This document shows positions 9,879 to 50,335 of a stretch of 64,000 nt of DNA, piece by piece. This stretch comes from Escherichia phage MX01. Numbering within the stretch: position 1 is the first letter of the stretch; each line of letters opens with the position of its first letter. Under the pieces are notes generated by a model, which ran no database searches, had not been told where the DNA came from, and was given only the letters and a program-made list of their open reading frames with translations. The stretch lies in the sequence record NC_031934.1. One strand, written 5' to 3'. A program made the position numbers and the translations under genes.

Positions 9879-9903
9879 TTTTAATCTCCTCATGTTTTGA
9901 TAG

Positions 9904-9937
9904 GTCTATAGTAACACGACGCTTTTTGTGTGTAAAC
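9904..9937 (-). promoter_or_regulatory. Early sigma70-type promoter (GTTTAC-N18-TACTATAGAC) for ORF 9612..9878
   Basis: Minus-strand GTTTAC and TACTATAGAC elements; same -10 core recurs before other minus-strand early genes. Confidence 0.55.
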
Positions 9938-24439: not shown

Positions 24440-24496
24440 AATGTTCTCCTCATGTTTGTGTAAGGTAATAGTACCACATCCTTGTGGTGTTGTAAA

Positions 24497-26620
24497 CTAC
24501 ATTTTGAATTTATTTGATAAAGAAGAGATGTCCAAAGATGCAGCAAGGATTTCCATAGCTTCGTTGCTTTCAGAAACGGATTCATTAACCAAGAATTGAC
24601 TGAATCCATCCATCAGGCGAACTTCACCAGTTTCCATCAAATGGTCACCATCGTAAACAGATTCGCTGAGCTCTGAAGGAGGTGTTACGGTAGCTTCCAT
24701 AAGGTATTTGTGAGATACTCTATCATTCATGGCAAAAGCTGCTACTTTATCAACCTTCAACAATAATCCACGCGGAAGGATAATTTCTGCTTCTTCGGCA
24801 TATTCTGTAAGGTCACCAGGAGCGATAACTTTAACTGCTTCAGCACCTCGAATAACCATACCAATTTCAGCAATTCTATCTGCAGGACCTTCAGGTGCAA
24901 TTGGATTACCAAACTCGTCTTCTTCCCATTCTACCTCTTCATCATCGACTTCACCCACATCAGATGAACTACCGCTAGCCAATTTAAACAACTCATCAGC
25001 GGAGGATAAAGAACCTTCACCACCAACAAAAACGGCTTGGTTGTCGAGGGCCATATAATTTTTACCAAATTCGCCAAAGATGTTAGGCTTTAATGAGGCT
25101 GACACAAAGTTCTTAAAGTAAAATGTTTTGTTATCGATATTATGACGCAGAATTTTGTATGGCAAATCCTGACCACGATACAAAATAGTACCCTTAGGAA
25201 GTTTAATACCCTTAGTAAATGCTGAGTCTAAATCCTTAATCAATTTAATAGCCGTTGTATTGTTTTCGGATTCAGGTTTACCTAAAAGGAACAAGTTCAT
25301 AGGAGCATATTCAGCTGCGCAATATTCAATAATAGCATTGCTTTCGTCTTTGGTTAGGCCCTTAGGTTTAATGAGCTCACCTGAATAAGCATATGCATCA
25401 CTAATAGAATCGTTAATTAGTTTATAAACGGCTTCCATAGCGAAAGCAATTCGGGATGCTTTCTCTGAAGGGGAGCCTTTAAAACGGGTACTCAGGTTAT
25501 TAACAATTTTCTTAATAATATCCAGACTATTGGTTGTATTGATTTGCGAAAGGCCACTTAAAAGTCTATCGACTTCTGTATTAAAAAATGCCATATTATT
25601 AGAGTAAATTTCAAACCCTTGTTTATCTCTATTAGCATAATTTAGTTTAAATTTACTATCAGTCATTAAAGCGTGTGTGAGAGCAATAGTGTATCTAAAG
25701 TTGGCAAGGTCCTCGCTCTTAGATTTAAACTGAGAAGCCTGGCGCATTTTGGTAATAGCACCTTTTTTAAAGTTCTGACTAATCTGTTCAATACCTTCGT
25801 TCTCAGGGCCTTCAGCCGTGTGAACCGGTACAGAAGCTTCAAACTCGTTATAAACCTGCAATTCTTTAGGGGACAAAGTTTCAGGCTCAGCAGTAGAATA
25901 CTGCGCCGCCGCTGCCATACGACGCGAAATCTTAGTACGAGTAATGACAGCCTTATCAGTACGTTTCTCTTCAACTTGTGCAATAGATGCCGCTACGGCT
26001 TCGACCTTACTTACGGCCTGGCCGGTTTTCTTAGAAACATACACTTCGCCAACTTTAGACTCAACTTTAGTATAAAGATCGGCATTAATTTCAGGCATAC
26101 CCTTGATATCTTCAATATTAGCACCACGACGTACTAAAAGAACGTAGGTATGTTTTCCGCTGAATTGGAACATGTCGTCAACAACTTTAAACTTACCACC
26201 GGTACGAGCCATAGCCAAGCGAGCTAATACGCGCTGAACGGTAGGACCTTTACCTTTCATTTTCTTAGTAGGGAAACGGAACAAAACCGCGTCCATTTTA
26301 AGTTTGTTTATTTGTTCATATATGGTATCGAAAATGGTGTTCAGTGTACCGAGTGGATCGGTACCCAAACCACCCTTGAGTTCTGCCGGAGCGCCTTTAG
26401 CAGATAAACTCATTAAGATAACATGGACGTACTTATCACCCGGCTTAACCATTTTAATAGCATCGCCTTCAGACGCGTATGAAACCATACGCGCTACTAA
26501 ATTGTCATTACCAGGAGCATGGACCGCAAAAATCTGCGGTACGCCCGAGCCAGGTTTAAGATTTGTTACTGGGTAATTTTTTTTATCGCTTTTATCAAAA
26601 ACTTCGTTTAAATTTTCCAT
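24497..26620 (-). CDS. alt: Alt-like ADP-ribosyltransferase, paralog 1
   Basis: 707 aa; N-terminal 230 aa conserved with the two neighbours and T4 Alt (PQIF, LSAKG, KLKGGLG, TKVESKVGEVY); C-terminal R-S-E signature YRGQ / FVSASL / EAEIILPRG. Confidence 0.85.
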   Translation of the reverse strand: MENLNEVFDKSDKKNYPVTNLKPGSGVPQIFAVHAPGNDNLVARMVSYASEGDAIKMVKPGDKYVHVILMSLSAKGAPAELKGGLGTDPLGTLNTIFDTIYEQINKLKMDAVLFRFPTKKMKGKGPTVQRVLARLAMARTGGKFKVVDDMFQFSGKHTYVLLVRRGANIEDIKGMPEINADLYTKVESKVGEVYVSKKTGQAVSKVEAVAASIAQVEEKRTDKAVITRTKISRRMAAAAQYSTAEPETLSPKELQVYNEFEASVPVHTAEGPENEGIEQISQNFKKGAITKMRQASQFKSKSEDLANFRYTIALTHALMTDSKFKLNYANRDKQGFEIYSNNMAFFNTEVDRLLSGLSQINTTNSLDIIKKIVNNLSTRFKGSPSEKASRIAFAMEAVYKLINDSISDAYAYSGELIKPKGLTKDESNAIIEYCAAEYAPMNLFLLGKPESENNTTAIKLIKDLDSAFTKGIKLPKGTILYRGQDLPYKILRHNIDNKTFYFKNFVSASLKPNIFGEFGKNYMALDNQAVFVGGEGSLSSADELFKLASGSSSDVGEVDDEEVEWEEDEFGNPIAPEGPADRIAEIGMVIRGAEAVKVIAPGDLTEYAEEAEIILPRGLLLKVDKVAAFAMNDRVSHKYLMEATVTPPSELSESVYDGDHLMETGEVRLMDGFSQFLVNESVSESNEAMEILAASLDISSLSNKFKM

Positions 26621-26623
26621 TAT

Positions 26624-28669
26624 TTACCCTTGGATGAATTTTTCTGGGATTTCGTCAAAATTAATACATGAAGCTAAAATAGGCATTATATCCACCTTGG
26701 TCGATTTGACAAATGAATCAAAAGACACAGGGTTGTCGGTCTCTGTTTCTACACCTTGGTAAACAACCAATTCGCCTGTTTCCATCAATGCATCGCCATC
26801 ATAGATAACCGCATTTTCTGCTAGTTGGTCTGTGGTCTGGATATCTGCTTCCAATAATTTGGTGTTGTAGTTTCCTTTATATGAGGCATCAGTAATTTTA
26901 GTAATCTTAACTGTAGTTCCACGTGGAAGAATAACCTCTTGTTCTGTTGGAGAACCTGACAATTCACCAGGCATAATTACGTTAATAGAGTCTGCACCAG
27001 AAATTTTCCAGCCGATGTTCATCATTGTATTTTCGGAACTCGTCAGCATACTTGGAAGAACAATTTCATTATCGCCTTGGAAAGATGTCCCAGCGCGATA
27101 GTCTTGATGTACTGCTGCCATTGCGACGTTTGATACCCAGCCGCCAAAGATAATTGGCTTAAGGGACGTTGATACATAGTTCCTGAAATAAAACAATTTT
27201 GAGTGTTTGATTTTATCAAAAGTGTTAACATTTAAATATTGCCCACGCCAAAGTGTAATATCAGGTGGCAATTTATGGCCAATTTCAAATGCCGCATCCA
27301 TATCGTTAATTACTTCAATTACACGCTGGCTATCAATGAATTCTGCATCCTCTTCATAATAATTACCCAACAAATAATTATTAACATCGGTATAATATTG
27401 GCCACAATAAGAAGAAATAGCCTCACGCTGCTCATACTCAAATCGATTATCGCTATAACCGGCTGTAAAATGCATAAGACTTTCTGATGCTTCATTAGCA
27501 AAGTCGGTAACAGCAGCACTTATACGTTGAGCATACTCTTGTTCCCAAAGCTCTGCTGCATATTCTGACGCATCCATATTAGGAGGGGCCTCATTCACTT
27601 TTCTTTCGATAAATGCAGCTTTGCGAAGGTTAAGAATCTCTGCACATGATTCGGCAAAAATCTGCATCTGCTTCATACTGCCAACAGGAGCACGTTTAAG
27701 TTCACGATGCATACGGTTAAAAATTGGGTCAGAGTCTTCGACTCGAATTTCTTCTTTCCAAACACCATTTGCTCGCATAGCCGTATCTGCCGCGCGCATA
27801 CGGTCCATAGTATTCGTTTCAGAAGGTCGAACAAAAATTTCTAGTTCTTCATAATCATCGATAAGTTCTGCCGTAGCCGGTCGACTAAACTTAGCAGCTT
27901 CTGCATCAATTTCGTCCCAACCTTCCGGAACTTCATCTCGAGGAGAATACTGGGCTGCGGCCACAGCACGCCTAGAAATCTTGGTAGTAGTAATAACAGC
28001 CTTATCCGTACGTTTTTCTTCGACTGCCGCTATACTAGCAGATAGTGCTTCTATTTTGGTTACTGATTGGCCGGTTTTCTTAGAAACATAAACCTCACCA
28101 ACTTTAGACTCAACCTTAGTGTAAAGGTCTGCATCAATTTCAGGCATACCTTTTATGTCCTCAATATTAGCTTGTTTACGAACCAGTAAAACGTATGTAT
28201 GTTTGCCTGTAAATTGATACATATCATCGACAACTTTAAACTTGCCGCCAGTACGAGCCATCGCCAAACGTGCCAATACACGTTGAACAGTAGGACCCTT
28301 ACCTTTCATTTTCTTGGTAGGGAAGCGGAAAAGAACTGCATCCATTTTAAGTTTATTTACCTGTTCATATACCGTATCGAAAATGGTATTCAATGTACCA
28401 AATGGGTCAGAACCTAACCCACCTTTCAACTCGGCTGGGGTACCCTTAGCAGACAAACTCATTAGAATAACGTGGACATATTTGTCGCCTGGCTTAACCA
28501 TTTTAATAGCGTCTCCTTGAGACGCATAAGATACCATACGAGCAACCAAGTTATCATTACCTGGTGCTTGGATAGAGAAAATCTGTGGAATACCGGAACC
28601 TGGTTTAAGATTTATTACTGGATAGTTTTTAGCGGAATCACTATCAAAAACTTCGTTTAAATTTTCCAT
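26624..28669 (-). CDS. Alt-like ADP-ribosyltransferase, paralog 2
   Basis: 681 aa; same conserved N-terminal domain; R-S-E signature WRGQ / YVSTSL / EQEVILPRG; divergent central region. Confidence 0.85.
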   Translation of the reverse strand: MENLNEVFDSDSAKNYPVINLKPGSGIPQIFSIQAPGNDNLVARMVSYASQGDAIKMVKPGDKYVHVILMSLSAKGTPAELKGGLGSDPFGTLNTIFDTVYEQVNKLKMDAVLFRFPTKKMKGKGPTVQRVLARLAMARTGGKFKVVDDMYQFTGKHTYVLLVRKQANIEDIKGMPEIDADLYTKVESKVGEVYVSKKTGQSVTKIEALSASIAAVEEKRTDKAVITTTKISRRAVAAAQYSPRDEVPEGWDEIDAEAAKFSRPATAELIDDYEELEIFVRPSETNTMDRMRAADTAMRANGVWKEEIRVEDSDPIFNRMHRELKRAPVGSMKQMQIFAESCAEILNLRKAAFIERKVNEAPPNMDASEYAAELWEQEYAQRISAAVTDFANEASESLMHFTAGYSDNRFEYEQREAISSYCGQYYTDVNNYLLGNYYEEDAEFIDSQRVIEVINDMDAAFEIGHKLPPDITLWRGQYLNVNTFDKIKHSKLFYFRNYVSTSLKPIIFGGWVSNVAMAAVHQDYRAGTSFQGDNEIVLPSMLTSSENTMMNIGWKISGADSINVIMPGELSGSPTEQEVILPRGTTVKITKITDASYKGNYNTKLLEADIQTTDQLAENAVIYDGDALMETGELVVYQGVETETDNPVSFDSFVKSTKVDIMPILASCINFDEIPEKFIQG

Positions 28670-28672
28670 TAT

Positions 28673-30757
28673 TTACCCTTGGATGAATTTTTCTGGGATG
28701 TCATAGAGGTCTATGCATGAAGCCAAAAGAGACAGCACATCAACCCGTGTAGATTTAACAAATGAATCAAAAGATACAGGGCTTTCGGAAGTATCGAAAT
28801 CATCTTGATATACGACCAACTCGCCGGTTTCCATTAGTACGTCACCATCATACACCACAGATTCTTGAAGCTCATCTGTTGTCATAACTTCGGCTTGGAT
28901 GAGTTTTGTATTATTAGATGTTGTTCCATCATTATTAGAAGCATCTGTTATTTTATTAACTTTGACCATTAATCCACGTGGTAGAATAACTTCAGCTTCA
29001 GTTGCTATTCCGAGATTTCCTGGATATACAACATTAACTTTATGAGCCCCATCAATCGCCCATCCTATTTGAACTTTAACGTATTCAGGATTTTCTTTAT
29101 ATGCTCTTATTTCATTAGGATTGATAGTTATTCCTTCTTCATTTTTATCGACTGTCAATTCATTGCGAACTTCAGGTTCTAAAAGACCAATACCTGCGTG
29201 GGTAACACCAAAACGTCCGAAAATGATAGGAGTTAATGAAGTAGATACAAAATTTCTAAAATAAAACACTTTATTTTTAACTAGTGCTTCGTATATAGGA
29301 GCAGTCATACTCTGTGCACGATAAACTGTGATGCCTTCTGGTATACGGTCGCCATTTTCAAAAGCAGAATCCAAATTATTAACTGCAGATTCGATATCTT
29401 TTTCACTCATAATCTCATAGTTATGAGGATTGTAACGACCTAAAAGAAGGTTATTTATATCGCCGTATCCAGAGCCACAATATTCTCTGATGCCACGCTT
29501 TTGCGATGGGGTATATTTAGAACCCTCACGAGCAATAGTAATATCAACCATTGAACCACCACCCACACCAGCAAAACTATATACGCGTTTTTTAATGAAT
29601 TTGGTCTTGGCTGCTTTCCACTTGGACTCGGTCAATTCATTCCAGAGGTCATCAGGTTGTCCTTTACGAGTTTTGTTATGCGTAGCCAACCACTCGCCTT
29701 TGTATTCTTCGAAAACGGTATTAATAGCAGAGGCATATTTTTCTAGAGCTTTAACAGATGTCAAAGGTTCGTTTTTGATGGCTGATAGGATTTTCTCTTT
29801 AATTTTCTCTTTGATTTCACCTATACCGTGAAGAGGAAACATTTTATAATCGTAATGCAATTCTTCAGCAGTACCTTCAGCTACTATATTAGCAACCTTA
29901 TTTTTAGCCGCAGGAGAATTGTTATTAGTAACCATTTCCTGGGCCTCAGGGATTAATGGAACTGTTGCCGGTTTATTAAAATCCGCTGCAGTAGCTTCAT
30001 ATTTCTTAAACAATTCACTTTCATTACGATAAGATTCCAATGATTGGCTTGCTGCAATGGCGCGCCTAGAAATCTTAGTCTTGGTTATAACCATTTTATC
30101 AGTGCGACGTTCTTCAACCTTAGCAATACTGCCGGCAATAGCAGTTTCTTTAGTAACCTGCACACCTTCTTTTTTGGAAATATAAACTTCACCGACATCA
30201 GAATCTACCTTAGTATACAATTCAGCATTAATTCCAGGCATACCTTTGATATCTTCGATATCAGCTTGTTTACGGACTACCAGGATGTAAGTATGTTTAC
30301 CGGTAAATTGGTACATAGCCGGAACCACTTTAAAACGTCCACCGGTTTTCTGTGTTACCAAACGTTGGATAATACGTTGAACGATAGGGCCTTGACCTTT
30401 CATTTTCTTGGTAGGAAAACGGAACATCACGGCATCCATACGAAGCTTTTTAACTTGGTCATAAACCACATCAAAAATAGTATTAATCGCATCTACAGGA
30501 GTAGGGCCAAGGCCACCTTTAAGTTCGGCTGGAGTACCTTTAGCTGAAAGGCTCATAAGGATAACGTGGGCATATTTATCACCCATTTTAACTTGTTTAA
30601 TAGCATCACCTTCAGAAGCGTAGGATACCATACGAGCAACTAATTGGGACTCTGCATCGCCAATCTTCCAAATCTGGGGTACTTTAAGTTTTGGGTTCAA
30701 GTTTACTGTAGGCAGAGTGCCTTCGGACTCAAACACTTCATTTAATTGTTCGGTCAT
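28673..30757 (-). CDS. Alt-like ADP-ribosyltransferase, paralog 3
   Basis: 694 aa; same conserved N-terminal domain; R-S-E signature YRAQ / FVSTSL / EAEVILPRG; C-terminal tail shared with paralog 2. Confidence 0.85.
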   Translation of the reverse strand: MTEQLNEVFESEGTLPTVNLNPKLKVPQIWKIGDAESQLVARMVSYASEGDAIKQVKMGDKYAHVILMSLSAKGTPAELKGGLGPTPVDAINTIFDVVYDQVKKLRMDAVMFRFPTKKMKGQGPIVQRIIQRLVTQKTGGRFKVVPAMYQFTGKHTYILVVRKQADIEDIKGMPGINAELYTKVDSDVGEVYISKKEGVQVTKETAIAGSIAKVEERRTDKMVITKTKISRRAIAASQSLESYRNESELFKKYEATAADFNKPATVPLIPEAQEMVTNNNSPAAKNKVANIVAEGTAEELHYDYKMFPLHGIGEIKEKIKEKILSAIKNEPLTSVKALEKYASAINTVFEEYKGEWLATHNKTRKGQPDDLWNELTESKWKAAKTKFIKKRVYSFAGVGGGSMVDITIAREGSKYTPSQKRGIREYCGSGYGDINNLLLGRYNPHNYEIMSEKDIESAVNNLDSAFENGDRIPEGITVYRAQSMTAPIYEALVKNKVFYFRNFVSTSLTPIIFGRFGVTHAGIGLLEPEVRNELTVDKNEEGITINPNEIRAYKENPEYVKVQIGWAIDGAHKVNVVYPGNLGIATEAEVILPRGLMVKVNKITDASNNDGTTSNNTKLIQAEVMTTDELQESVVYDGDVLMETGELVVYQDDFDTSESPVSFDSFVKSTRVDVLSLLASCIDLYDIPEKFIQG

Positions 30758-34105: not shown

Positions 34106-34300
34106 TTATCCTCGCTTTAAACATTTGATTACAGACAGTTCACCACCCGTGCGAACATCTTCAGTTCCATCGACCCATAGGACGGTGTAGGCTTCTTTAA
34201 TAGTAACATTACCTAATTTAAAAGCAGGTAGAACCTTTGAAATCATTCCAGGAATACCTACACCTTTTAGCTGAACAGTTTGTGATAAGAATAGTTGCAT
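34106..34300 (-). CDS. Hypothetical protein
   Basis: 64-aa ORF tightly packed in 30.x operon. Confidence 0.35.
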   Translation of the reverse strand: MQLFLSQTVQLKGVGIPGMISKVLPAFKLGNVTIKEAYTVLWVDGTEDVRTGGELSVIKCLKRG

Positions 34301-34587: not shown

Positions 34588-34627
34588 AATATTTTCCTCA
34601 AAGGGGCCGAAGCCTCCATTTTTAAGA

Positions 34628-34993
34628 TTAGATATCGAATTCGTTCAGAACTACATCAAAGATTGCTTCCAGGTGTTCAGGTTTAGCTCGGTTGCTCAGG
34701 ATGTGACGAATCCAAGTTTTAACCAGAAGCTTACGATTAACACCGTTCCAGCAAGGATGGGTACCTAAATCACGTTGACGGAAATCATCATCTAAAGCGA
34801 TTTTAAAAGTAGAACCTTCCATTGTGATTGAAACCGTAATACCATTTTCAAAGCGCATATAAACGTAGTTAGGAGTCATGCACTGTTCGATTTCGCACAC
34901 CGCGCCGTTGTTGTGTTTCCACAGGCAAATAACTTCAGAAGAACCAGCGATACCGTTAGAAACATATTTACGTTCGAAGTTGATGTAGTTCAT
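34628..34993 (-). CDS. Hypothetical protein with duplicated promoter/leader cassette
   Basis: 121 aa; 39-nt 5' leader identical to that of ORF 35067..35399. Confidence 0.55.
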   Translation of the reverse strand: MNYINFERKYVSNGIAGSSEVICLWKHNNGAVCEIEQCMTPNYVYMRFENGITVSITMEGSTFKIALDDDFRQRDLGTHPCWNGVNRKLLVKTWIRHILSNRAKPEHLEAIFDVVLNEFDI

Positions 34994-35054
34994 TTTATTC
35001 TCCAGTTTGTTTTCGTATTATTTGGTACAGGTCTATAATAACACAACCTGTACC
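34991..35054 (-). promoter_or_regulatory. Early promoter/leader cassette copy A with inverted repeat GGTACAGG/CCTGTACC flanking -10 (PeSL-like)
   Basis: 39-nt leader identical to copy B; 8-bp inverted repeat arms at 35024-35031 and 35047-35054. Confidence 0.6.
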
Positions 35055-35066
35055 AAAGTAAAACAT

Positions 35067-35399
35067 TTATTTCACAACATTCCAATTTTTCATATCAAGT
35101 TTACCAACTTTTTTCATCTGAGCAATCAGACGTTCAGCGCGTGTACGGGCATTAACATAATAGAATTCACCATTTTTGTTTTCTTCAATACGACCAGTAA
35201 TTACAGTTTTCAGTTCATAAATCCAACCTGTAAAGAAGTTGTGAAGCTCGATGGTGAACGTGAAATCAGTACCCGTACCTTCAGTTGTTTCAACTTCGAT
35301 GATATCACCTTCAACTGCAGTCAGGACCCACATGGTTTCTTGATATCCGCCGTTGAAACATTTAGCTTTAACAGATGCATTCAGATTTACAGTTTTCAT
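35067..35399 (-). CDS. Hypothetical protein with duplicated promoter/leader cassette
   Basis: 110 aa; identical leader GTACCAAATAATACGAAAACAAACTGGAGAATAAAATG. Confidence 0.55.
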   Translation of the reverse strand: MKTVNLNASVKAKCFNGGYQETMWVLTAVEGDIIEVETTEGTGTDFTFTIELHNFFTGWIYELKTVITGRIEENKNGEFYYVNARTRAERLIAQMKKVGKLDMKNWNVVK

Positions 35400-35470
35400 T
35401 TTATTCTCCAGTTTGTTTTCGTATTATTTGGTACATGTCTATAGTATCATGCCTACCGGAGATGTACACC
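35397..35470 (-). promoter_or_regulatory. Early promoter/leader cassette copy B
   Basis: Identical 39-nt leader CATTTTATTCTCCAGTTTGTTTTCGTATTATTTGGTACA (plus strand) and TACTATAGAC -10. Confidence 0.6.
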
Positions 35471-35495
35471 ATTTTTTAAAGATTTAGAAACAAAA

Positions 35496-35517
35496 ATGGG
35501 ACTCCGAAGAGTCCCAT
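35496..35517 (-). terminator. Terminator hairpin ATGGGACTC-CGAA-GAGTCCCAT
   Basis: 9-bp stem, tetraloop, T-tract on the minus strand; downstream of the small basic ORF. Confidence 0.7.
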
Positions 35518-35522
35518 AACTT

Positions 35523-35684
35523 ATGCCTGAGGCTTACCAAAGCAAGCAGCATCTGCACGCAATACTGCACGAGCACGAGCTTGAAGCTTATCAACTACCT
35601 GATTGATACGCTTGTTGGACGCACGCTTGTAACCAGCGCGTTTAGAGGTACCGTCAACTACTTTAACTTCTTTCTTAGCCATTT
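35523..35684 (-). CDS. Small basic protein (53 aa), below ORF-track cutoff
   Basis: Hand-translated MAKKEVKVVDGTSKRAGYKRASNKRINQVVDKLQARARAVLRADAACFGKPQA; followed by a tetraloop terminator on the minus strand. Confidence 0.4.
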
Positions 35685-35949
35685 TAAATCTCTTAAATTA
35701 GAATGCAGGACTTATTGGCGTTGCCTGCGCAAGCCCTCAAGGGGAACATAGGTTTCGGATATTTAACGACAGGATAACCATAAACCTCGTCATCATACCA
35801 ACCACGACTTAGACAGATAACCTTTTTCTGACGCGTGATAGTACAAAATACATTCAAGAGGTACACCGTAAAATTGTCGGGGCGGTACTTCTAAAACATA
35901 CCGATTCGTAAATCGATAATCAGACAATTCGACGGCTCCTCGATTTAAC

Positions 35950-36198
35950 TTACTTCAGGGTAATAATAAAATGACGTACTGCTTTACGAGCTGCTGAAGC
36001 CAAAGGCTTAGAAAATTTCAGTTCATCTTTAGCTTCCAGTTCAGCAGCCAGAGTAGCCTGTGCTGGGTTCAGATGTTTGAAATAACGCAGGATTTCCAGT
36101 GCTTCGGCTTCAACATCAATAGATGCACCGTAGTTTTCGTGACCGTTGTTCCAAGCGTTGCGTTGCAGTTCAAGAGCGTGATTCAGATGTTTGTTCAT
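35950..36198 (-). CDS. rIII: rIII lysis inhibition accessory protein
   Basis: 82 aa, same length as T4 rIII; position adjacent to gene 31. Confidence 0.8.
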   Translation of the reverse strand: MNKHLNHALELQRNAWNNGHENYGASIDVEAEALEILRYFKHLNPAQATLAAELEAKDELKFSKPLASAARKAVRHFIITLK

Positions 36199-40544: not shown

Positions 40545-41059
40545 ACACCAAGTTCCTTATAAAGTTCTTCACGGCAAGTTTTAAGGGTTTTACCCGATTC
40601 GTAAGCAACACTTTCAGGAACATCGCCAAGGGTTACTGCGGATTGCATTTGACCGTGACGTTTAGCCGCGTATTCAAAACTTTTCACTAGCTCACGAATA
40701 CGTTCTTTTTCATTATATTCTTCAATGAATTCAGGGTATTCCCAAACCGGACGCATCATACGATACCACTGTTGGATGGTGATATAATTACTTCCATCCA
40801 AATTAATAATCTGCGAAGGCTCAATAGACCCTGGAGCATAAAAAGTTACCTGTCTTACTACATCAATACCGTCCACAATAGCCCAAGCAAAATCGAAAGT
40901 TGCCTTCTTTTCAATTGGCGTGCTTGCACAGGACCCTAGCTTAAGGAGCTTTTGTAATGCAGGAGATTTGACACCTGAAATGTATTCAGGCTTAGCCACA
41001 AAACTGTTATCACGTAAAGTCATAATAATTTCCTCAATTTTTATAATCCGTAGGAGCAT
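40541..41059 (-). CDS. Hypothetical protein (pseT.x slot)
   Basis: 172-aa ORF; true start may be internal. Confidence 0.5.
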
Positions 41060-41190
41060 TATACTCCGCTCCCAAGAGTTTGTAAACTACTTTCCAAAAA
41101 TACCATTTATACACATGCTAAGCACGATTCCAAAACAAAAGCATGTAAAGCCAAATAGAATGACATCCGACCCATCGATACAAGACTCAA

Positions 41191-41831: not shown

Positions 41832-42319
41832 TTGGTAATAATCTCGATGATGTCATCACGTGACAGGGAATTAATAAGAACCGTTTTAGGATTTTCGCAC
41901 TGAATTTTGTACGTTTCGAACATAAAACACAATTCTTCAGCGGTATGGTAAGGACTTGAAATGCCAAGGCGATTAAACTTGTCGCTTAATGGGTCACAAA
42001 TCAAATAGAAAGTGATGCCTGAGATTTTGACATTAGGTTGACTAATATTAATGAACACCTCGGCATCATACTTGGAAAGGTTGTTTTGGAGAAACTCAAC
42101 CATAGAGTTGACGGCTTCAGGCATGGCTTCACGCTTTTCTTCTGCATAACGGGTAGAGTATTCTTTTTGCTTGATTTTCTTTTTAGCATTTTTAGCTAAA
42201 GTGACACGAAGATCGGTCAGGTAACCTACTGCACGAGAACCTTTAAAAACTTGGATGCCGTCAGTAGAGTCACCAAAAGCCTTAACAACCATTTCGTTAG
42301 TAATCATTTGCATATTCAT
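41819..42319 (-). CDS. alc: Alc-like protein (assigned by position and size)
   Basis: 166 aa (T4 Alc 167 aa) between spanins and rnlA; early promoter in inverted repeat upstream. Confidence 0.5.
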   Translation of the reverse strand: MNMQMITNEMVVKAFGDSTDGIQVFKGSRAVGYLTDLRVTLAKNAKKKIKQKEYSTRYAEEKREAMPEAVNSMVEFLQNNLSKYDAEVFINISQPNVKISGITFYLICDPLSDKFNRLGISSPYHTAEELCFMFETYKIQCENPKTVLINSLSRDDIIEIITKCLN

Positions 42320-42327
42320 TTTGTTTT

Positions 42328-42370
42328 CTCCTCATTAGTTGGTAAGTCTATACTAACACGTCATGAGGAG
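42328..42370 (-). promoter_or_regulatory. Early promoter for alc-like gene with 8-bp inverted repeat CTCCTCAT/ATGAGGAG; downstream arm contains the RBS
   Basis: Minus-strand GTTTAC ... TAGTAT; inverted repeat arms at 42328-42335 and 42363-42370. Confidence 0.55.
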
Positions 42371-42377
42371 ATGTAAA

Positions 42378-43526
42378 CTACTCTACCACAATTTCTTTCA
42401 AATATTTTTCAGGGATTTGGGCCTTATGATTTTTCAAGAACACAGAGTTAATCTGGTCCATGACCGTATCATAATTAATACCGCCTACGTACGCCTGCAT
42501 AAGAATAGAGAACAACCCTGGGAAGTCCTTAAGGATTAATTGACCTGTAACGGCATAGTCTTTACGGTCACGTCCCTTGAGTTGGGAATATGCTGCTTCC
42601 AACAAAGCCAATGATTGTTCTAGGTAATCTAAATGGATACGTTCGAAGGCATCGATTTTCTCGATAGCAAACGAATCCGTACTGAACAGACCACGAAGGT
42701 CATCAGTTCCGCCAGCCACTACAACTTCAAACAAACGTTCGTTATTGTTAATGGAATCTTTGGTATGATGCAGTGCACTGTACCATGCAGTTTTGAGTTT
42801 AAAGAACGTACCATCTTTAAGTACAAAGATGAAACCTTCAATACCCTCTTGTTTACGGATGTTTTCTACGAAATCACCCTCAGAGAGGTCATAGCTTTCA
42901 ACCAAATGCTTACGCAGGGCGCCATCTTTAAACAATTCAGCATACGGAATATATTCACCCGTTTCATTATTACGAACGTTTAACAGGATGAGGTTTGTTT
43001 CTTGGTAAGCCAACACGATACGGTTGGTAGGTGCAACATATTCAAGGTTGCAGGTATACCCGGCTTTGGTGATTTCTTCTAGACGTGCGGCAAAAGCCTC
43101 GTTCTCAGGGAGACGAAGGAAACGTAAAGAATCATGCACCATTGATGAATGGATAGAGCCTTTAGATTTAACAGAAAGATACTGACGGTCCATGAATGTA
43201 GAAATCAGAGAACCATCTTCCTTAGCCATTACGAGGTCGATATTTTCCGGCGACAAATCTAGACCGATAGTCATAGGGTTTTCGTCAAGGTTAAAGAACT
43301 TTTGCATAGGACGAGCAGCAATACGTACTGGACCTTTCTCGTCCATTTCAAACATAATGCCTCGACACTCTAGTGCGCCGTCTTCCAACCAATCACTGTA
43401 CGATGCATAGTTATAACTAAAGATGCGATAGTTGACTCCTAGCGCACTCTGAAAGTCTTTAAAGAAGAACTTAGATTTAGTCGAGTTTTTAACCAGGGCC
43501 ATTAAGTTATCATATAATTCAATCAT
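42378..43526 (-). CDS. rnlA: RNA ligase 1
   Basis: 382 aa; YRIFSYNYASYSDWLEDGALECRGIMFEMD matches T4 Rnl1. Confidence 0.95.
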   Translation of the reverse strand: MIELYDNLMALVKNSTKSKFFFKDFQSALGVNYRIFSYNYASYSDWLEDGALECRGIMFEMDEKGPVRIAARPMQKFFNLDENPMTIGLDLSPENIDLVMAKEDGSLISTFMDRQYLSVKSKGSIHSSMVHDSLRFLRLPENEAFAARLEEITKAGYTCNLEYVAPTNRIVLAYQETNLILLNVRNNETGEYIPYAELFKDGALRKHLVESYDLSEGDFVENIRKQEGIEGFIFVLKDGTFFKLKTAWYSALHHTKDSINNNERLFEVVVAGGTDDLRGLFSTDSFAIEKIDAFERIHLDYLEQSLALLEAAYSQLKGRDRKDYAVTGQLILKDFPGLFSILMQAYVGGINYDTVMDQINSVFLKNHKAQIPEKYLKEIVVE

Positions 43527-47586: not shown

Positions 47587-49272
<1,686 letters not shown>

Positions 49273-49279
49273 TTTATTC

Positions 49280-49320
49280 TCCTTAGTTGATAAGGCTATA
49301 GTATCACTACCATAGCCTGG
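49280..49320 (-). promoter_or_regulatory. Early promoter cassette (GTTTAC-N18-TACTAT) with inverted repeat AGGCTAT/ATAGCCT
   Basis: Arms at 49293-49299 and 49312-49318 flank the -10. Confidence 0.55.
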
Positions 49321-49327
49321 TGTAAAC

Positions 49328-49573
49328 TTATTTTTGAATTAAGCCCATATAAAATTTAGCGTCTTCCGGGTGCATACCGTCACAATACTCGTAAGCCATA
49401 AAGCGGGTAAGGTCTTCAAGAGGACCTTGGACTTCAATTTGCATACTACAGAATTGAGTATCTTTAATATGGGTCATAACTAAAGAAGGATAACGATTAC
49501 GGATAACTTCGTAAGTGTATTCAAAATCAACGATATCAATATTAACCTTAGCCATTTTATTTTCCTCACTCAT
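49328..49573 (-). CDS. Hypothetical protein (frd.x slot)
   Basis: 81 aa; early promoter cassette upstream. Confidence 0.5.
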
Positions 49574-49574
49574 T

Positions 49575-49620
49575 AGTTGATAGGTCTATAGTATCATGTT
49601 TAAAGGCGTTGTAAACATTT
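49575..49620 (-). promoter_or_regulatory. Early promoter cassette, near-identical to copy at 50290-50335
   Basis: Shared about 60-nt sequence TTAGTTGATAGGTCTATAGTATCATGTTTAAAGG..TTGTAAAC (plus strand). Confidence 0.55.
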
Positions 49621-49879
49621 ATTTTTGAATTTTATCAAGCCATTTACCAAGTTTAATCATTTCTTTGGTAGCTTTTTCCATACTTCTAAATTTAACCAGT
49701 AAAGGTTGGGCATCAACACCCATAACTAAGGTGGTTACAAGACTATGTTCACCTACAAGCCATAATGAATAAGTTTGGATATCGAGCCCGTAATTTCGGT
49801 CTTTATGAACTCGTACACCCATCACTTCAAATTTCTCACTGGCTTTTTCTACTGCATCCAGGAAATCATCTTTAGTCAT
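49619..49879 (-). CDS. Hypothetical protein (frd.x slot; start at internal ATG)
   Basis: 86 aa from MTKDDFLDAV; upstream gene stop 1 nt away. Confidence 0.45.
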   Translation of the reverse strand: MTKDDFLDAVEKASEKFEVMGVRVHKDRNYGLDIQTYSLWLVGEHSLVTTLVMGVDAQPLLVKFRSMEKATKEMIKLGKWLDKIQK

Positions 49880-49880
49880 A

Positions 49881-50270
49881 TTAGGCCTTAAAAGTTTTTT
49901 GCAAAAGTTCAATGATTTGGTCAACGTTCTGTTCGGTGACAATGCAATGGATTTGAGTCACACCGGCCTTAGCAATAGGCTCATCGATTTCTTTATCTTC
50001 CACAACATATTCACAGAAGCAATAGAACTCATCTTCATGCAACTCAAAATAATTTGGCACCAACCCAAATGCATTATAAATCTCGCCGTTAGCACATTCG
50101 ATTTCAGTCACAAATTTGTCGCCATCCATAGTCAACATATCCTTTACTTCAAACCAACCTCCGTTGTCTTGGATAAGGTCGACCATGCTTTTATTATTTT
50201 CATATTCGTCCATTTCAATAAAGTCTTTAATGCATTCAGGACGAAGTTCATAAGTTTTACCGATTTCCAT
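49881..50270 (-). CDS. Hypothetical acidic protein (frd.x slot)
   Basis: 129 aa; early promoter cassette upstream. Confidence 0.5.
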   Translation of the reverse strand: MEIGKTYELRPECIKDFIEMDEYENNKSMVDLIQDNGGWFEVKDMLTMDGDKFVTEIECANGEIYNAFGLVPNYFELHEDEFYCFCEYVVEDKEIDEPIAKAGVTQIHCIVTEQNVDQIIELLQKTFKA

Positions 50271-50289
50271 TTTATTTCCTCATCTATTA

Positions 50290-50335
50290 GTTGATAGGTC
50301 TATAGTATCATGTTTAAAGGTATTGTAAACCATTA
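50290..50335 (-). promoter_or_regulatory. Early promoter cassette, near-identical to copy at 49575-49620
   Basis: Same GTTTACAA-N-TACTATAGACCTATCAACTAAT core on minus strand. Confidence 0.55.

Follow-up and report, generated by a model that had tools for sequence, protein, structure and literature searches.

Two T4-type early promoter and leader cassettes upstream of genes 30.8 and 30.7 of Escherichia phage MX01: a duplicated leader, a conserved hairpin and allele exchange

Introduction

Why should two unrelated early genes of one phage begin with the same leader? The question is raised by genes 30.8 and 30.7 of Escherichia phage MX01 (sequence record NC_031934.1), of which a stretch of 64,000 nucleotides (nt), called the window here, was analysed as a whole. 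An initial annotation of the window had noted that the 39 nt in front of the two open reading frames (ORFs), on the minus strand, are identical, and had likened the two elements to the promoter early stem-loop (PeSL) modules of T4-like phages. We found that the copy in front of 30.7 (copy A) and the copy in front of 30.8 (copy B) probably belong to two T4-type early initiation cassettes, P30.7 and P30.8, each combining a strong early promoter with an A-rich leader of approximately 30 nt and a Shine-Dalgarno (SD) sequence that is also a RegB site. In this reading a hairpin at P30.7 acts on read-through RNA, the two leaders were homogenised by recombination, and short blocks within the cassettes served as crossover points between phages.

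PeSL cassettes consist of an AT-rich stretch, a T4-type early promoter, a stem-loop, an SD sequence and an ATG, and five subclasses are described according to the position of the stem-loop (Arbiol et al. 2010, PMC2839356; Comeau et al. 2014, PMC4122927). They are located preferentially in hyperplastic regions, beside ORFans or genes in which close relatives differ, and recombination between flanking copies is described as giving rise to deletions or mini-circles. The early-promoter consensus of T4 and PST is TTTACW-N17-TAYWAT (Comeau et al. 2014, PMC4122927), and the layout of UP, -35, TGn and -10 elements in T4 early promoters has also been described (PMC2988021). For efficient cleavage by RegB/S1 the T4 consensus is GGAGAAUAAAA, with no specific information needed upstream of the GGAG (Durand et al. 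2006, PMC1702504). The T4 30.7 early mRNA is a known RegB target and is cut in the GGAG of its SD sequence (PMC9409239).

Results

The leader is duplicated in front of genes 30.8 and 30.7

The minus-strand string TGTACCAAATAATACGAAAACAAACTGGAGAATAAAATG was found exactly twice in the window, at 34991-35029 and 35397-35435, ending at the ATG of ORFs 34628-34993 and 35067-35399, respectively. The reported identity of 39 nt, including the ribosome-binding site and the ATG, was exact, and it proved to be longer than first described. It runs two bases beyond the ATG (ATGAA), which gives 41 nt, and with three mismatches it reaches upstream through TATAGAC, which gives 55 nt at 95% identity (34989-35043 compared to 35395-35449; repeat family D9). 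The copies are spaced 406 bp apart, and a third copy of the leader was absent from the window. No 39-nt match was obtained in 100 shuffles, so that none is expected by chance, and the same pair of copies was present in dozens of independently sequenced Dhakavirus genomes; a coincidental match or an assembly artefact has negligible probability, and this explanation was rejected on both grounds. The two encoded proteins had been described as dissimilar, and they were indeed unrelated (BLASTP E=1.2), belonging to the different Pfam families Phage_30_8 and Phage_T4_Gp30_7.

Each leader is preceded by a predicted strong sigma-70 early promoter, TTTACT-N16-TATTAT in copy A and TGTACA-N16-TACTAT in copy B, with TGn ahead of each -10 element. 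The motif GTTTAC...TA(C/T)TATAGAC, proposed initially for both promoters, was present in copy A, but the -35 region of copy B reads GTGTAC instead of GTTTAC. Nine matches to T[TG]TAC[AT]-N15-17-TAYWAT were found in the window compared to 1.3 expected, all of them on the minus (early-transcribed) strand, and two of the nine are the cassettes. At both orthologous sites in the record of Tequatrovirus fPS-90, predicted early promoters are annotated, together with a terminator after 30.9. The AT-rich stretch of a PeSL is represented by TTTCTAAATCTTTAAAAAAT in copy B and by GTGAAATAAAT in copy A, which includes the TAA stop codon of 30.8, and the SD sequence and start codon at the 3' end of both copies are GGAGAATAAAATG. 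With the AT-rich stretch, early promoter, stem-loop, SD sequence and ATG all in place, the PeSL-type anatomy that had been proposed for both elements was supported.

A second family of early promoter and leader cassettes, with the form GTTTAC...GATACTATAGACCTATCAACTAAT...GAGGA...ATG, was observed at 49556-49621 and 50270-50335, and also at 49275-49307, 42318-42383 and 9885-9917. The two best-matching members, 714 bp apart, are 86% identical over 66 nt, and the exact RegB/SD block described below (GGAGAATAAAATGAA, 49268-49282) is also found in the cassette at 49326.

The last 11 nt before the AUG were found to be GGAGAAUAAAA in both leaders, letter for letter the T4 RegB/S1 optimum, which T4 itself also carries at 30.7. 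The motif GGAGRAYARAA had only three matches in the window, all in minus-strand SD-ATG contexts, and two of these are the cassettes (35409-35399 and 35003-34993). As in the RegB/S1 SD sites of T4 early mRNAs, the exact 11-nt sequence stands right before the AUG in a predicted unstructured, A-rich leader, and fold prediction for the copy A leader left this segment unpaired. In contrast to T4, cleavage in MX01 is a prediction, and regB is known from the close relative JS98, where it is annotated outside the region that matches the window. GGAGAAUAAAA-UG is thus the SD sequence and a predicted RegB/S1 site in both cassettes. The early mRNAs of 30.8 and 30.7 would be translated at once and then inactivated together through this shared site. 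These 11 nt are functionally constrained, because they equal the cleavage consensus. RegB does not account for the remaining 26 identical bases, as its cleavage has no specific requirement upstream of GGAG.

Leader identity differs between genera and between isolates

The region is 96-98% identical to that of the JS98 group of T4-type phages (genus Dhakavirus). Within one genome, the A and B leaders were 100% identical in Dhakavirus, 82% in RB69, 74% in VR20 and 63% in RB51. Both P30.8 and P30.7 carry TATAGAC-N-TGTACCA and the leader in Dhakavirus and Mosigvirus; Tequatrovirus and Gaprivervirus have another promoter at 30.8, with only the SD/RegB block in common with P30.7. The extent of identity also varied among isolates. 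Copy B of IME341 has the C of copy A at the sole mismatch position, which results in 49 identical nt. In IME281 and QL01 the two leaders differ at one position, and in VR5 and PSD9 it is the SD segment of copy A that differs.

Because leader identity falls outside Dhakavirus and the identical tract varies among isolates, these sequences point to repeated, recent, non-reciprocal recombination (concerted evolution) rather than functional conservation as the source of the identity. The 26 leader bases upstream of GGAG were probably homogenised in the Dhakavirus lineage by such recombination, either gene conversion or excision and re-integration as in the PeSL model.

A hairpin around the -10 element of P30.7 is conserved as a structure

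The -10 element of copy A had been described as bracketed by a perfect 8-bp inverted repeat. A perfect repeat was present, with arms of 12 bp and not 8 bp (TTTGGTACAGGT, 35046-35057, and ACCTGTACCAAA, 35021-35032) and a 13-nt loop that contains TGn-TATTAT. Folded as RNA, it reached -18.8 kcal/mol with z-scores of -4.1 to -6.0, and 0-1 shuffles were as good. Of its arms, the 5' one falls within the promoter spacer, and the 3' one overlaps with both the predicted start of transcription and the beginning of the shared leader. The inverted repeat of copy B is weak (9 bp at 89%), and its RNA fold was not significant (z about -1 to -1.6). A pairing of the copy B spacer with its SD sequence (UCUCCGGU/ACUGGAGA) occurs in the minimum free energy structure, but it was rejected as a candidate with a z-score of -1.5 and no conservation in RB69-type cassettes.

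Conservation of the hairpin was surveyed in 31 distinct regions upstream of 30.7 orthologues, obtained from INPHARED and IMG/VR. In nearly all of them an inverted repeat of 9-15 bp was found, reaching from the spacer to just past the -10 element. Approximately seven unrelated arm sequences occupied this same position; the arms include TGGTACAGG in the T-even phages of E. coli (T4 itself among them), GGTGAGAGTC in Erwinia Winklervirus, GGTGTAGGAGTA in Klebsiella Marfavirus, GTGAGATAACA in Serratia 92A1, GCTGATTGAGTGTG in loci L059 and L066, and TTGGGTGGT in Roth68 and L062. In the Karamvirus/CC31-type regions (L029, L048, L049, L063, L064 and L065), the spacer CTCCGTTGTAT pairs with the SD/RegB site ATACAACGGAG, approximately 30 nt downstream, and in L063 both sides of this pairing have changed to give a fully compensated variant (CTCCGAGGTTTGT/ATAAACCTCGGAG). 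Folds of nine P30.7 segments, eight foreign and the window's own, had z-scores of -4.0 to -6.8 and were not equalled by any of 200 shuffles. Four internal non-Watson-Crick pairs were found, all of them G.T on the mRNA-sense strand, and no stem was broken by an A.C mismatch. This strand comparison used only the internal pairs of strict stems, as permissive extension was dominated by spurious outer pairs. A search of Rfam 15 returned no family over threshold; the sole match, to mir-12, had 19.9 bits against a threshold of 55 bits (E=0.9) and is attributed to chance.

Taken together, the G.T pairs on the sense strand, the variant that pairs with the SD sequence and a 5' arm that precedes the predicted start argue for a structure under selection in read-through RNA and against a protein operator or a cruciform. 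Transcripts started at P30.7 would lack the 5' arm, so that only read-through RNA holds both arms, and the CC31-type spacer-SD pairing makes sense only at the RNA level. The hairpin would act on read-through RNA and shield the 30.7 unit from transcription that comes from upstream, through attenuation, through processing or as a barrier at the 3' end, or in some genera through masking of the SD sequence. Cassette B would be insulated by the true terminator that follows 30.9.

Elsewhere in the window, an inverted repeat around the -10 element was seen at two other minus-strand early promoters, 49298-49326 and 41058-41086 (AGGCTAT/ATAGCCT, z -3.3, and GGGAGC/GCTCC, z -2.5, respectively), and the promoter at 24496 has a hairpin within its spacer (z -2.0).

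Alleles are exchanged between the cassettes of different phages

Approximately ten Dhakavirus isolates, including IME08, IME341, PSD9, PSD2002, dhaeg, CLB_P2, ABTNLsp5, Ec2-ASingh and C6, have a copy spacing of 443 bp and a 122-amino-acid (aa) allele of 30.8, the protein of which is 38% identical to that of the 110-aa allele in the window. When the window was compared to IME341, identity was 97-100% down to 35409, 33-77% across 35408-35059, and 96-100% from 35058 on; the swapped segment of IME341 resembles Gaprivervirus VR20. The left crossover interval, ACTGGAGAATAAAATGAAAA, is a 20-nt block of RegB site, SD sequence and ATG, and the right one, TTTACTTTGGTACAGGTT, is an 18-nt block of -35 element and 5' hairpin arm. 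PSD9 has a second mosaic patch, which reaches into 30.7.

The boundary of cassette B is also a site of insertion. Between the T-run of the 30.9 terminator and the UP region of P30.8, C6 (Dhakavirus) and TH57 (Gaprivervirus) have an additional proline-rich ORF of 118 aa with its own UUCG-loop terminator (L026 822-1178 in C6 and L069 1301-1657 in TH57; approximately 35485-35490 would be the equivalent position in the window). Among approximately 1000 records it is full-length only in these two, and Pfam gave no match. The C-terminal half aligns at 61-67% identity with the C-terminal part of a 204-aa ORF, which takes up the 30.6 slot in ST0-type Mosigviruses (L068 1108-1722). The extra ORF of C6 was also considered as a paralogue of gp30.4 and was rejected as such (BLASTP E=4.0 and 0.43).

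These findings bear out the expectation that gene content at the cassette boundaries differs among related genomes as far as allele replacement and the extra ORF are concerned; neither loss nor gain of 30.8 was seen in the records compared. The crossovers on record took place between cassettes that are orthologous in different phages, not between copies A and B. In mixed infections the short conserved blocks of 20 and 18 nt may act as crossover points, and the ORF between them would be exchanged as a module.

Less than 1 kb from the cassettes, the non-coding or small-ORF stretch between rIII and 30.9 (35796-35950) is a further mosaic patch of exchange, with 35832-35796 being 15-22% identical to JS98 and 100% identical to PSD9, VR20 and RB69. 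When RB69 (L002 1990-2491) was compared to the window at 34106-34300, gene 30.5, which is present in the window, JS98, VR20 and T4, was missing in RB69; this difference in gene content falls in the same early cluster but not at a promoter cassette.

Genes and flanking elements of the locus

According to the annotation of JS98 and T4, the minus-strand order at the locus is rIII, 30.9, 30.8, 30.7, 30.6 and onwards to ligase gene 30, and the order rIII-30.9-30.8-30.7-30.6 is kept in four genera (features in Table 1). Gene 30.7 is more than 90% identical across the T-even genera of E. coli, and the identity of gp30.8 across records ranges from 98% down to 37%. The element after 30.9 (35517-35496 followed by TTTTTGTTT) has the make-up that defines an intrinsic terminator, a GC-rich hairpin with a U-tract right after it, here with a 9-bp stem, and lies 28 nt upstream of the -35 element of P30.8; the same layout of terminator plus promoter after 30.9 was found in VR20, RB51 and Serratia 92A1.

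Table 1. Features of the 30.9-30.7 region in the window, in the direction of early transcription
Feature	Position	Strand	Basis
Gene 30.9, 53 aa, upstream neighbour	35521..35682	-	ORF; JS98 orthologue annotated gp30.9; phrog_1427 match
Intrinsic terminator after 30.9, ATGGGACTC-TTCG-GAGTCCCAT then TTTTTGTTT	35487..35517	-	Terminator scan and inverted repeat I3
Predicted promoter P30.8 (cassette B): A-rich UP-like tract TTTAAAAAAT, -35 TGTACA (35468-35463), 16-nt spacer, TGn, -10 TACTAT (35446-35441)	35441..35482	-	Consensus regular expression and sequence
Shared leader of cassette B, 41 nt; RegB/S1 consensus GGAGAATAAAA (35409-35399), also the SD sequence; ATG 35399-35397	35395..35435	-	
Gene 30.8, 110-aa allele, module swapped in relatives	35067..35399	-	Pfam PF06019 Phage_30_8, E=4.6e-47
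Predicted promoter P30.7 (cassette A): -35 TTTACT (35062-35057), 16-nt spacer, TGn, -10 TATTAT (35040-35035)	35035..35062	-	Sigma-70 scan and regular expression
Perfect 12-bp hairpin TTTGGTACAGGT/ACCTGTACCAAA around the -10 of P30.7	35021..35057	-	Inverted-repeat search (I1) and RNA fold
Shared leader of cassette A, 41 nt; RegB/S1 consensus GGAGAATAAAA (35003-34993); ATG 34993-34991	34989..35029	-	
Gene 30.7, 121 aa, highly conserved	34628..34993	-	Pfam PF06919 Phage_T4_Gp30_7, E=1.5e-51
GC-rich UUCG hairpin between 30.7 and 30.6, minus-strand GAGGCTTCGGCCCC; no promoter after it	34603..34616	-	Sequence; terminator scan called the opposite strand

Three tandem paralogous ORFs of 707, 681 and 694 aa (approximately 2 kb each) were observed on the minus strand at 24497-30757, each with an ADP-ribosyltransferase domain (PF03496). 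These alt-like genes number three here, compared to the single alt next to gene 30 in T4, and they account for the repeat families D1-D3 (64-84% identity, spacings of 2049 and 2094 bp).

Discussion

The locus is a clean, well-resolved example of a known T4 regulatory module and not a new mechanism. As in published PeSLs, near-identical copies flank a small ORF, the intergenic gap is approximately 70-120 bp, and the differences between close relatives are replacements and insertions placed exactly at the cassettes. Copy A falls into the described subclass in which the stem-loop overlaps the -10 element, and copy B has the layout of PST and T4, with a terminator hairpin just upstream of the promoter. 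In contrast to published PeSLs, the flanked genes are not ORFans of a hyperplastic region but are conserved in approximately 1000 Tevenvirinae-type records, with gp30.8 nevertheless being highly divergent and swapped between alleles within Dhakavirus, excision or insertion of the flanked ORF was not seen, and the copy A hairpin is AT-rich and lacks a U-tract, whereas the stems tested in RB49 and phi1 have the form Gn-loop-Cn. The PeSL interpretation is therefore upheld for the structure and for exchange at the cassette boundaries, but not for gain or loss of the flanked gene. The main text of Comeau et al. 2014 (PMC4122927), the only PeSL paper searched for the 30.8/30.7 site, does not mention it. 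The region upstream of ligase gene 30 has been studied experimentally in T4 and relatives by Truncaite et al. 2006 (Virology 344:378), as cited in PMC9409239 and PMC1702504. It comprises the same locus and genes, and T4 has the same P30.7 hairpin; the difference is that the 30.8 and 30.7 leaders of Tequatrovirus share only the SD/RegB block (63%), and the 41-nt identity is specific to Dhakavirus. For sixteen phages, the study is reported to describe conservation of a terminator, an early promoter, a stem-loop and RegB sites.

Whether the leaders match through recombination or through selection depends on which of their bases are considered. It is conceivable that one optimal 5' untranslated region, co-regulating both genes through translation, RegB/S1, RegA or another RNA-binding factor, has been kept by selection with no recombination at all. 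The last 15 nt fit such an explanation: GGAGAATAAAATGAA occurs in both genes of every T-even genus examined as well as at a third gene of the window (49268-49282), and since it is common to these genera and equals the RegB/S1 consensus, this block is clearly held by function. The 26 nt upstream of GGAG do not behave in this way. They differ freely from one genus to another and, in RB69, VR20 and RB51, from one gene to the other (63-82% identity), in a segment for which RegB/S1 requires nothing specific (Durand et al., PMC1702504). The identity moreover extends upstream into the -10/+1 region (TATAGAC), and the length of the tract varies by isolate in the manner of a conversion tract. Selection as the whole explanation is thus improbable, and homogenisation of the upstream bases by recombination is preferred.

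For the hairpin, termination of transcripts from P30.8 is one conceivable function, and it would make 30.8 and 30.7 two monocistronic units separated by a strict PeSL terminator. There is precedent in one PeSL stem-loop of RB49/phi1, which cut expression of a downstream lacZ as much as rrnB T1 did (Arbiol et al. 2010, PMC2839356), and the copy A hairpin is stable and lies within the intergenic gap. A terminator of this kind is nevertheless unlikely. No U-tract follows the P30.7 hairpin in any genus examined, the next bases being AAUAAUACG, AACAAGG and similar sequences (UAAUACGAAAAC in the window); the scan that called the 30.9 terminator did not call the copy A hairpin; and the CC31-type equivalent, with a loop of 25-31 nt, pairs with the SD sequence and is more like translational masking. 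Action of the inverted repeat as DNA, either as an operator through which a dimeric phage or host protein shuts off the promoter or as a cruciform that exposes the -10 element in single-stranded form, is more doubtful still and has very little probability. The repeat is centred on the -10 element with a loop that corresponds approximately to the TGn/-10 element, and the mechanism by which T4 early promoters are shut off is stated to be unknown (PMC2988021). But the arms differ wholly between genera while their pairing is kept, which is the signature of a nucleic-acid structure and not of a protein site. The four internal non-Watson-Crick pairs, each a G.T on the sense strand and hence an A.C mismatch on the other, disfavour a symmetrical cruciform or palindromic operator, and the CC31-type variant pairs with an SD sequence 30 nt downstream.

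Several observations weigh against the reading of the locus as a whole, in which P30.8 and P30.7 are early initiation cassettes with an insulating hairpin, homogenised leaders and crossover blocks. The -35 element of copy B has one mismatch to the consensus, and both spacers are 16 nt, not 17, by the hexamer definition used. A hairpin without a U-tract makes a role as attenuator or insulator conjectural, and such hairpins were found at only three or four of the nine early promoters of the window. Intragenomic recombination, with conversion as its putative mechanism, is inferred only from the homogenisation of the sequences, and with several candidate ancestors matching the Dhakavirus leader at 80-87% identity, transfer from A to B is not discriminated from transfer from B to A. 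Breakpoints at conserved blocks are expected from general homologous recombination of diverged phages, and the cassettes need not be specialised sites. Products of recombination between copies A and B were also sought. A synthetic 605-nt junction of 30.9, cassette B and 30.7 was compared by BLAST to 50,697 phage records, and the deletion junction was in none of the 60 best records, in which the matches were split into two or three pieces spanning at least 1011 bp. A pattern search of IMG/VR with TATAGACNTGTACCAAATAATAC gave six genomes, each with exactly two leader copies, 406 or 443 bp apart, and no A x B recombinant; in metagenome contigs the same pattern had no match and hence no such recombinant was found there. 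Loss of 30.8 through recombination between the copies was rejected, the gene being present in all 60 best junction matches. The suggestion that the identical leaders mediate gain or loss of the intervening gene was accordingly not supported: no such genome was found, and gp30.8 and gp30.7 are present in 994 and 993 records, respectively.

If the hairpin does act on read-through RNA, it may resemble arrangements already known in T4. In T4 genes e, soc, 49 and I-TevI the SD sequence is hidden when transcription reads through from upstream and accessible when the transcript begins within the hairpin; these cases of start-site-dependent masking use late or middle promoters, not early ones. P30.7 is similar in that its 5' arm lies upstream of the start and is foldable only in read-through RNA, and in CC31/Karamvirus phages the 3' arm is the SD sequence itself, so that read-through transcripts would have the 30.7 SD sequence masked and transcripts started at P30.7 would not. 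It differs in being an early promoter, and in the window the hairpin ends approximately 25 nt before the SD sequence, without masking. We tentatively suggest, as a possibility that the present evidence leaves well short of likely, that the hairpin is an ancient and positively maintained RNA switch that tells read-through transcripts from locally started ones and steers the translation, RegB access or decay of one class. Should this be the case, the stem-loop of many PeSLs would be such a discriminator and not a terminator, and approximately seven unrelated arm sequences at one orthologous site, spread over several enterobacterial genera of T4-like phages, would be unusually clean covariation evidence for an RNA element embedded in a promoter.

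Current understanding of T4-like phages is unchanged by this locus, as the promoters, the RegB site and the PeSL concept have already been published. What it offers is a base-level view of the exchange of a fast-evolving early gene, in which gp30.8 alleles of 38% identity are bounded by regulatory blocks of 18-20 nt. These findings support the PeSL or "linker" view of modular evolution, for which they are a cleaner example than most of those published. With the stem-loop conserved as a structure across genera, the function of the hairpin can be tested with compensatory mutants, and its covariation across genera, within a promoter, is the most interesting feature of the locus.

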